From Christensenellales bacterium (GTDB lineage Bacteria; Bacillota; Clostridia; Christensenellales; CAG-917), in contig DBFJGL010000111.1 in assembly GCA_048394785.1 (NCBI GenBank), positions 152 through 64,151 on the forward strand: a stretch of 64,000 nt of DNA, in the 5' to 3' direction. This document shows, one piece after another, positions 8,875 to 9,257 of this stretch. The translations under genes were made by a program, and so were the position numbers. Every line of letters begins with the position of its first letter. The stretch's first letter is position 1. Below the pieces are notes generated by a model that was not told the DNA's origin, did no database searches, and saw only the letters and a list, made by a program, of their open reading frames with translations.

Positions 8875-8951
8875 GCACCCGTAGCTCAGCTGGATAGAGT
8901 GTCAGATTCCGATTCTGAAGGTCGCAGGTTCGACTCCTGTCGGGTGTACCA
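8875..8951 (+). tRNA. tRNA-Arg (anticodon CCG), CCA encoded
   Basis: Hand-folded cloverleaf: acceptor GCACCCG/CGGGTGT, D arm GCTC-AGCTGGATA-GAGT, anticodon arm TCAGA-TTCCGAT-TCTGA (anticodon CCG), variable loop AGGTC, T arm GCAGG-TTCGACT-CCTGT, discriminator A plus CCA. Total 77 nt. Confidence 0.9.
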
Positions 8952-8953
8952 GC

Positions 8954-8985
8954 GACCCACACTATTTCTTCGTGTGGGTCTTTCT
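8954..8985 (+). terminator. Rho-independent terminator after the tRNA-Arg gene (repeat unit 1)
   Basis: Stem GACCCACAC (8954-8962) pairs with GTGTGGGTC (8972-8980) around a 9-nt loop, followed by TTTCT. Confidence 0.65.
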
Positions 8986-9089
8986 GTTCCCTCGACACTC
9001 GTCATAACCGTTAGCTGACGCGGCGGCGCAACGCACCTTGCCGCTATTACGCTCATTACATTCGCTACGACCCTGTCGGGTGTACCAGC

Positions 9090-9121
9090 GACCCACACCA
9101 TTTCTTCGTGTGGGTCTTTCT
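9090..9121 (+). terminator. Second copy of the same terminator hairpin (repeat unit 2)
   Basis: Stem GACCCACAC (9090-9098) pairs with GTGTGGGTC (9108-9116), followed by TTTCTT. Confidence 0.6.
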
Positions 9122-9225
9122 TCTACCCGACACTCGTCATAACCGTTAGCTGACGCGGCGGTGCAACGCACCTTGCCGCTATTACGCTCATTACATTCGC
9201 TACAACTCCTGTCGGGTGTACCAGC

Positions 9226-9257
9226 AAAACCCTTGCAGCTGCAAGGGTTTATTTTTT
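9226..9257 (+). terminator. Strong rho-independent terminator after the third tRNA-3'-end copy
   Basis: AAAACCCTTGCAG/CTGCAAGGGTTT forms a perfect palindrome, followed by ATTTTTT. Confidence 0.75.

Follow-up and report, generated by a model that had tools for sequence, protein, structure and literature searches.

The tRNA-Arg(CCG) locus and its array of tRNA tails

The 64,000-nucleotide stretch analysed here (positions 152 to 64,151 of contig DBFJGL010000111.1, assembly GCA_048394785.1 of a Christensenellales bacterium; referred to below as the window) carries a single tRNA gene, a tRNA-Arg(CCG) gene on the forward strand that was located with ARAGORN and scores 64.1 bits with the Rfam tRNA model RF00005, and this gene is followed by an array in which its own 3' end, or tail, is present two more times (Table 1). 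The 18-mer CCTGTCGGGTGTACCAGC, which comprises the 3' strand of the T stem, the 3' strand of the acceptor stem, the discriminator, CCA and two further nucleotides, is found as exact copies at positions 8936, 9072 and 9208, just as a first-pass annotation of the window had reported, and no further copy with up to three mismatches is present in the 64-kb window (chance expectation 0.02). Tandem Repeats Finder delimits the array at 8931-9225, with a period of 135-136, 2.2 copies and 94% matches. The cores are separated by 118 nt and the two units differ at about 8 positions, corresponding to 94-95% identity, so the period of 136 bp, the 118 bp between cores and the 8-9 differences of the first-pass annotation all hold. 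The identity block was probably 23 nt long originally (CGACTCCTGTCGGGTGTACCAGC), as judged from the unit alignment, in which its 5' edge has lost a T in copy 2 and shows a G to A change in copy 3.

The array (8952-9225) lies directly 3' of the tRNA gene on the same strand, and one promoter-like site is located upstream of both; a similar -35 element, CTCGACA, precedes the tRNA gene at L023, one of the related loci described below. Core copies 1 and 2 are each followed by a hairpin with the same 9-bp stem (GACCCACAC-N9-GTGTGGGTC; -16 kcal/mol, z = -6.0) and by an interrupted U tract (TTTCTGTT or TTTCTTCT), and core copy 3 is followed by a different, canonical terminator; both observations had been made before and were recovered here, as was every other anatomical statement of the first-pass annotation. 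A consensus terminator scan called the terminator after core copy 3; hairpins 1a and 1b, with their interrupted U tract, were missed because their loop comprises 9 nt. The small open reading frames (ORFs) in the array lack a coding signal, and the period is not divisible by three.

Homologous units in related genomes

The corresponding loci of relatives were reached via homologues of the MnmA protein encoded in the window, which are 78-80% identical to it. Two other synteny anchors were rejected: relatives of the M28 peptidase at 82-84% identity have other neighbours and no tRNA, and the IMPase has no homologue above 52% identity other than an identical protein. The MnmA homologues P0333 and P0314 were set aside as well, with no tRNA-Arg within reach at their loci.

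The first-pass annotation had proposed to compare the orthologous tRNA-Arg locus in relatives for unit copy number, and this comparison identified homologous units directly 3' of tRNA-Arg(CCG) in three other species (L030; L023/L025; L028), with a copy number of 0, 1 or 2 among the relatives. L030 possesses a tandem array with a period of 132 bp, comprised of two units and a partial third, in which the tail copies equal its own tRNA tail CCTGCCGGGTGCGCCA, and it has a homologous CCCAC/GTGGG hairpin followed by TTCTTTT. In L023/L025, 196 nt (a single unit) separate tRNA-Arg(CCG) from a repeat of its tail (CCGTTTGGGTGC[G/A]CCA), behind which there is a terminator. The close relative L024, near-identical to L023 in the upstream region and the tRNA, lacks a unit, and another gene follows its tRNA. 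The discriminator is G in the L023 tRNA (1480-1495), and A in the distal copy of L023 and in the L024 tRNA (801-816). The fourth locus, L028, is syntenic with the window, its tRNA being divergent from a cysteine synthase-like gene. It retains only the right end of a unit; its tail repeat, 26 nt long, lies downstream of the tRNA core at a distance of 1023 bp, and between the two tail repeats are a 231-aa ORF of no known family and a degenerate extra tail fragment.

Several details of these loci were recorded besides. The single unit of L023 (1496-1590) is 60 nt longer than that of the window, and its extra GNRA-capped hairpins (CGTAAGCAAC-GAAA-GTTGCTTACG and ACACCGTGA-GCAA-TCACGGTGT) precede the terminator-like hairpin before helix P1 (see section below). 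The degenerate fragment of L028 (5160-5200, reverse strand) reads ACAGGTTCAAGTCCTGCAAACAAACCA followed by GACG, between the tRNA terminator and the 231-aa ORF; GACG likewise follows the tRNA CCA in L023. The fragment looks like an older, decayed tail copy, which would give the locus a layered history. From the tRNA to the mechanosensitive-channel gene, L023 has a 210-aa ORF versus an opposite-strand 262-aa ORF with Flg_new repeats in L024.

The units of the window and the relatives have the blocks GCTGACGCG, CGCTATTACG and GCTACGA in common, and the hairpin after the CCA can be aligned too. In each genome the repeated tail matches the tail of its own tRNA, though the tails differ between genomes. 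Identity among units is 95-99% within a genome versus 55-67% between genomes (modules). Since the units can be aligned across species, they form a family that is tied to tRNA-Arg(CCG).

The first-pass annotation had also suggested searching the sequence between the cores in other genomes, next to integrases or at the ends of islands. It was found in relatives at the same tRNA only, and not beside integrases. There is no other unit elsewhere in the window. Neither the core 18-mer nor segments of the unit interior and the hairpin-2 motif occur in IMG/VR, and the whole array has no blastn match among the INPHARED phages and PLSDB plasmids. The GTDB species representatives, searched with the core only, contain nine single copies of the 18-mer (Planctomycetota, Saccharibacteria and others), none of them in relatives. 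One match of an interior 22-mer in the JGI metagenomes (L013) was dismissed as a chance match, there being no similarity in its flanks. No unit end coincides with the end of an intact phage, integrative and conjugative element or island in IMG/VR, INPHARED, PLSDB, the JGI metagenomes or, with the core only, the GTDB representatives.

A conserved predicted fold closed by the tRNA tail

The units, trimmed to their last ~100 nt, were analysed with RNAalifold with no structure supplied; they represent three independent lineages, or four with L028. The consensus is comprised of four helices with 25 pairs. In P1 the tail copy, that is the 3' strands of T stem and acceptor stem, is paired with a complement at the start of the module and NCCA is left free. 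P1 is extended by the 3 bp of P1'. P2 is a long hairpin (GCGAUUG...CAAUCGC in three genomes, GCGGC...GCCGC in the window) that has a bulge of 2 nt on its 3' side, and P3 is a short hairpin. Compensatory changes affect 7 of the 25 pairs. Of all cells, 94.1% pair; controls in which the 3' partners were shifted by 1-3 columns reach 26-41%. These slid controls have covariation scores of at most 0.12, against 0.384 for the actual alignment, and none of 500 shuffles reached the observed pairing and covariation values. Despite the low module identity between genomes, the strands UAUUAC and UAC that join the helices are the same throughout.

A covariance model, R1, was built from the units, with L028 left out of training, and searched against 312 kb (the window and the loci). 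Beyond the training units it matched the right end of the unit in L028 (48 bits, E = 1.6e-9), where P2 is intact and a new compensatory inner stem, ACAC/GUGU, is present; the only other match is a weak one of 16.9 bits on promoter and tRNA. Unit 1 of the window reaches 94.5 bits, although as a training sequence. When the duplex energies of P1 5' strands and tails were compared in a 4x4 matrix, the best partner of each 5' strand was the tail of its own genome, and the minimum free energy (MFE) fold of single sequences recovers P1 and P2 in window unit 2 (z = -2.75), L030 and L023.

An alternative partner of the P1 5' strand is the tail copy that precedes it (8938-8944; 9074-9098 with 9108-9132). 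With this backward pairing, hairpin 1 would grow into an imperfect inverted repeat of 25 nt, with 76% complementarity in unit 2, and a fold of this kind could couple the formation of the tRNA 3' end with folding of the unit.

Resemblance to the RtT repeats of Escherichia coli

Tandem repeats with a tRNA tail are found behind tyrV of E. coli K-12, where 3.1 copies of a 178-bp repeat each end in the tRNA-Tyr tail AATCCTTCCCCCACCACCA; one more copy of the 178-bp repeat is located between tyrT and tyrV. These repeats, known as RtT, were sequenced in the 1970s. The Rfam model RtT (RF00391) recognizes four units on E. coli K-12, with 133-138 bits, and in its closing helix GGGGAAGG is paired with the tail copy CCUUCCCC, CCACCACCA being free. 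The annotated 3' end of the RttR RNA is the CCA of the first E. coli repeat. In PMC3318445 and bioRxiv 10.1101/2024.07.17.603846, rttR is assigned to one repeat unit of the tyrT operon and its role is described as unclear, possibly stress-related; PMC3318445 cites Bosl and Kersten (1991) for one RtT repeat yielding the RttR RNA.

In both organisms the array immediately follows a tRNA gene in the same orientation, in the window within the predicted transcription unit of that gene, and is composed of tandem units (3.1 copies of 178 bp in E. coli, 2.2 copies of 136 bp in the window). Each unit ends in the tail of the upstream tRNA, from T loop to CCA, and this tail copy together with an upstream complement closes a structured RNA of ~100-130 nt with NCCA free, a structure that is predicted in the case of the window. 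On the other hand, there is no detectable sequence homology: model RF00391 has no match in region 8600-9500 even at E <= 10. The window tRNA is Arg-CCG, not Tyr, and belongs to a different lineage; a strong hairpin and U tract precede each structured part; the interior is a three-way junction with invariant UAUUAC and UAC; a tpr-like conserved ORF is lacking; and the closing helix, significant in the single E. coli sequence, emerges in the window only via cross-species covariation. Sharing the closing-helix logic, the window units would be RtT-like; having no match to RF00391, they are not members of RtT.

Based on these comparisons, we consider it somewhat probable (roughly 0.55) that the array comprises two structured RNA modules in tandem, RtT-like and linked to the tRNA, which were duplicated by unequal crossing-over. 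The alignments are best explained if the modules represent a small, previously uncatalogued family tied to tRNA-Arg(CCG) in related gut bacteria. As modelled, P1 would form a continuous helix resembling acceptor and T stem, with a free NCCA tail, and would close a three-way junction with P2 and P3.

Several observations weigh against this interpretation. The covariation is carried by three lineages (four with L028), and so few independent lineages make its statistics thin. Taken alone, the window sequence has no significant complementarity between the tail and the interior of its units (p ~0.04-0.8 in shuffles, over windows and units), whereas none of 1000 shuffles equalled E. coli RtT in the same test; the evidence for P1 is therefore purely comparative. 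Sense and antisense strands have similar alifold energies (-18.5 versus -18.9 kcal/mol), the sense strand being favoured only by a 6:2 excess of G-U over A-C cells, and a structure at the DNA level or in an antisense RNA is possible instead. P1 of unit 1 is weaker, with one C-U mismatch, and the single-sequence MFE fold of this unit uses an alternative pairing; unit 2 has one mismatch in P1'. The terminator-like hairpin ahead of each module would limit its transcription. Finally, L028 has an ORF between the repeats and no P1 5' strand, and L024 has a wholly different segment after the tRNA, arrangements that are typical of a recombination hot spot.

If the array does encode such RNAs, each module would consist of (i) the terminator-like hairpin and (ii) a ~100-nt structured part with the host tRNA tail at its 3' end. 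Transcription from the tRNA promoter would partly read through the weak hairpins, and the modules would be cut from the precursor and trimmed to their CCA end by the tRNA-maturation machinery. The products would be RNAs of ~100-135 nt that mimic the top half of a tRNA. Copy number could shift via unequal crossing-over between the repeated tails or whole units, a process that may also keep the units of one genome 95-99% alike. Among the options in the first-pass annotation, that of a functional array producing RNAs ending in ...ACCA fits best with the cross-species conservation, the compensatory pairs and the E. coli RtT/RttR precedent. Decoy att sites, the other half of that option, find no support, nor does a tiny satellite that uses the site.

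Two other classes of RNA bear comparison. The 3' external transcribed spacers (3'ETS) of tRNA transcripts, such as the 3'ETS-leuZ small RNA (sRNA) sponge of E. coli, are non-coding RNAs that derive from the trailer of a tRNA transcript, as is putatively the case in the window, but they base-pair with sRNAs, are not in tandem and have no copy of the tRNA tail. Transfer RNA-like structures (the tRNA-like domain of tmRNA, viral tRNA-like structures, and minihelices acted on by RNase P or the CCA-adding enzyme) have a coaxial helix resembling acceptor and T stem and a single-stranded NCCA, as predicted for the window; the window fold differs in having no T loop, because the three-way junction replaces it. 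ARAGORN called no tmRNA in the window.

Alternative origins of the array

The first-pass annotation favoured att scars, and among the alternatives this one survives best. According to it, the units are remnants of at least one tyrosine-integrase element inserted in the T loop/3' end of tRNA-Arg(CCG), and these remnants were later duplicated; each remnant would consist of a replacement tRNA tail, its own terminator and an attP arm beside the core, would be non-autonomous in the manner of a cis-mobilizable element (CIME), and its conserved blocks would be protein-binding sites. As in att-site duplications, including CIME-type remnants and tandem accretion of islands, each insert lies between direct repeats of the tail, the copy on the element side makes the gene whole again and has a terminator of its own behind it, and presence and size of the insert vary among relatives (L024 lacks an insert, that of L023 measures 196 bp, and L028, in which an additional degenerate tail copy occurs, has one of 1023 bp that includes a cargo ORF). 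Integrases that target tRNA genes usually have an identity block starting in the T loop, and the block found here starts there too. The discriminator difference in L023 looks as if the proximal tail had been brought in, the motifs TCGCTAT and TCGCTAC are situated ~20 bp apart beside the core, and integration would supply the tail-X-tail ancestor that a 2.2-copy array needs. With the replacement in L024 and the insert in L028, the tRNA flank is clearly a recombination hot spot. Close relatives include occupied and empty sites (one unit in L023/L025, none in L024), but L024 is not a clean empty site because its post-tRNA sequence differs from that after the distal repeat of L023.

Nevertheless, no integrase or other recombinase domain was detected with Pfam in any of the 37 long ORFs of the window, in line with the integrase-free window noted earlier, nor, according to gene tables and Pfam, within 5-10 kb of the tRNA in L023, L024, L028 and L030. 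Unit, core and hairpin-2 motif are absent from IMG/VR, INPHARED and PLSDB, so that a phage, viral or plasmid match is lacking as well, and the unit comprises only 136 bp. Compensatory changes in P1, P2 and P3 constitute covariation of the RNA type and are unexpected for protein-binding DNA sites; att recombination has no use for a covarying complement of the tail; and tandem pairs of nearly equal period occur in two species. The variable 3' flank of the tRNA lends only indirect support to the att-scar proposal, which is weakened because relatives carry the array without an associated element and the unit is found nowhere else. We regard it as unlikely.

It appears still less likely that slippage or unequal crossing-over duplicated the 3' flank of the tRNA locally and in tandem as a neutral event, with spare terminators as its product at most. 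The units are 94-95% identical with few differences, and the unit interior alone folds no better than its shuffles (z = -0.31). An unchanged 18-mer in all copies is unsurprising at ~6% divergence, and its conservation within the window therefore needs no selection. However, the unit has been kept at the same tRNA in genomes whose MnmA is only 78-80% identical, with invariant junctions and compensatory pairs. Duplication cannot make tail-X-tail from a single-copy segment, and since 2.2 copies need a tail-X-tail ancestor, simple duplication is insufficient.

It is very improbable that the units are decayed tandem tRNA gene copies (pseudo-tRNAs) of which only the 3' ends were kept: there is a weak colinear similarity with the promoter and the 5' part of the tRNA (TTCACTCGACA versus TTCCCTCGACA, ATAAACCGT versus ATAACCGT), and the weak R1 match on promoter and tRNA (E = 0.23) points the same way, but neither ARAGORN nor Rfam finds a second tRNA, and the order of strands (an acceptor 5' mimic fused to a T-stem 5' mimic, ~70 nt, then the tail) is unlike that of a tRNA. 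Local and gapped alignments of the unit interior with promoter and tRNA body were not significant (p ~0.03-0.3).

The reality of the array was assessed with Logan contigs from two other samples, which were found by exact-protein look-up of two flanking genes. One contig (L003, SRR16554653) extends from the IMPase gene through the tRNA and ends at window position 9022; two others (L001, SRR16554653; L002, ERR13983360) extend from the peptidase gene and break at 9174. The former position is 30 nt past the last unit-1-specific base (8992), the latter 30 nt before the first unit-2-specific base (9204). A de Bruijn graph with k=31 is bound to fork at precisely these two points if it contains both variants of the unit, and the breaks therefore indicate at least two units in independent samples; a lone unit between repeats of 18-23 nt would not break the k=31 graph. 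Mis-assembly is common in tandem repeats, and the short-read contigs of the other samples do break within the array, but the chance of an assembly artefact seems negligible given these predicted break points, the homologous tandem array in another species (L030), and the complete rRNA operon spanned by the window contig, which suggests a long-read or finished assembly.

Genes surrounding the array

Judged by their Pfam domains, the genes around the array are housekeeping genes. One flank comprises the rRNA operon, MnmA, a cysteine synthase-like pyridoxal phosphate (PLP) enzyme and an IMPase-family gene; the other flank comprises the M28 peptidase, a diacylglycerol-kinase-family gene, an MFS transporter, an iron-containing alcohol dehydrogenase (Fe-ADH) and GAPDH, and farther on ribosomal proteins, EF-Tu, EF-G, SecA, RpoB and RpoC are encoded. 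ARAGORN found no tRNA in the 16S-23S spacer.

The IMPase-family gene (7906-8697, reverse strand) adjoins the tRNA. A collection of 5.8 billion proteins holds no homologue of it above 52% identity besides the identical sequence, and the same collection holds relatives of MnmA and of the M28 peptidase at 80-84%; in L028, where an IMPase gene is missing from this place, the tRNA directly adjoins the cysteine synthase-like gene. The IMPase gene may have been acquired next to the tRNA in one lineage only. The genes with RpoB and RpoC domains, at 43-51 kb, are ~17 kb away from the ribosomal protein L10 leader and the rplJ-like ORF (~26 kb). Two ORFs, 22027-23034 (reverse strand, 335 aa) and 53802-54737 (forward strand, 311 aa), have no Pfam match at E <= 1e-5.

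Table 1. Position of the tRNA-Arg(CCG) gene, the elements of the tail array and other features of the window.
Feature	Position	Strand	Description
rRNA operon, complete	352-5345	-	5S 352-468, 23S 563-3475, 16S 3830-5345
Sigma-70-like promoter of the tRNA gene	8837-8865	+	TCGACA, 17-nt spacer, TAAAAT; consensus match only, 10/12
tRNA-Arg(CCG) gene	8875-8951	+	CCA encoded; ARAGORN, Rfam RF00005
Core copy 1	8931-8953	+	3' part of T loop, T-stem 3' strand, acceptor 3' strand, discriminator, CCA, GC; exact 18-mer 8936-8953
Hairpin 1a and interrupted U tract	8954-8988	+	Terminator-like; GACCCACAC-N9-GTGTGGGTC
Unit 1 structured module	8989-9087	+	RNAalifold consensus, pair counts; predicted, ends in ACCA
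Unit 1 helices (predicted)	P1 8991-8997 with 9074-9080; P1' 9001-9003 with 9069-9071; P2 hairpin 9020-9044; P3 9051-9065		
Unit 1 invariant TATTAC	9045-9050	+	
Core copy 2	9067-9089	+	Exact 18-mer 9072-9089; 5' edge GAC-CC, T lost
Hairpin 1b and interrupted U tract	9090-9123	+	U tract TTTCTTCT
Unit 2 structured module	9124-9223	+	Predicted, ends in ACCA
Unit 2 helices (predicted)	P1 9126-9132 with 9210-9216; P2 9155-9179; P3 9186-9200		P1 has 9 bp in the single-sequence fold
Unit 2 TATTAC	9180-9185	+	
Core copy 3	9203-9225	+	Exact 18-mer 9208-9225; 5' edge G to A
Canonical intrinsic terminator	9227-9257	+	AAACCCTTGCAG/CTGCAAGGGTTT hairpin 9227-9250 and T6; closes the tRNA-array transcription unit
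Second bidirectional hairpin	9275-9304	.	TAAAAACGCTCCCG/CGGGAGCGTTTTTA; probably terminates the convergent M28 peptidase gene
M28 peptidase gene	9350-10624	-	Convergent with the tRNA array
Ribosomal protein L10 leader	26208-26338	-	Rfam RF00557, 65.8 bits; upstream of an rplJ-like ORF

Implications

Repeats of tRNA tails as such will not surprise specialists, but tandem partial tRNA 3' ends are routinely read as integration scars, and the present locus indicates that such an annotation can be wrong or incomplete.

A broader proposal, which we put forward tentatively and hold to be doubtful, is that RtT represents one case of a general, convergent class of tandem RNAs behind tRNA genes that mimic the top half of a tRNA and are released by the tRNA-maturation enzymes with a genuine NCCA. 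The window family would then be the first outside the Enterobacteria, and its invariant three-way-junction core could bind a protein or ligand, such as a sensor or modifier of tRNA 3' ends.

If the RtT-like interpretation is true, an unrelated family with the same closing-helix logic exists on another tRNA in a distant lineage, which would suggest that the shared layout, in which each unit ends with a copy of the tRNA tail that is drawn into an acceptor-like helix, is selected and not accidental. A second RtT-like family supported by covariation would also make the old question of RtT function and origin testable, the handles being a second system for comparison, the covariance model R1 and natural variants with zero, one or two copies.

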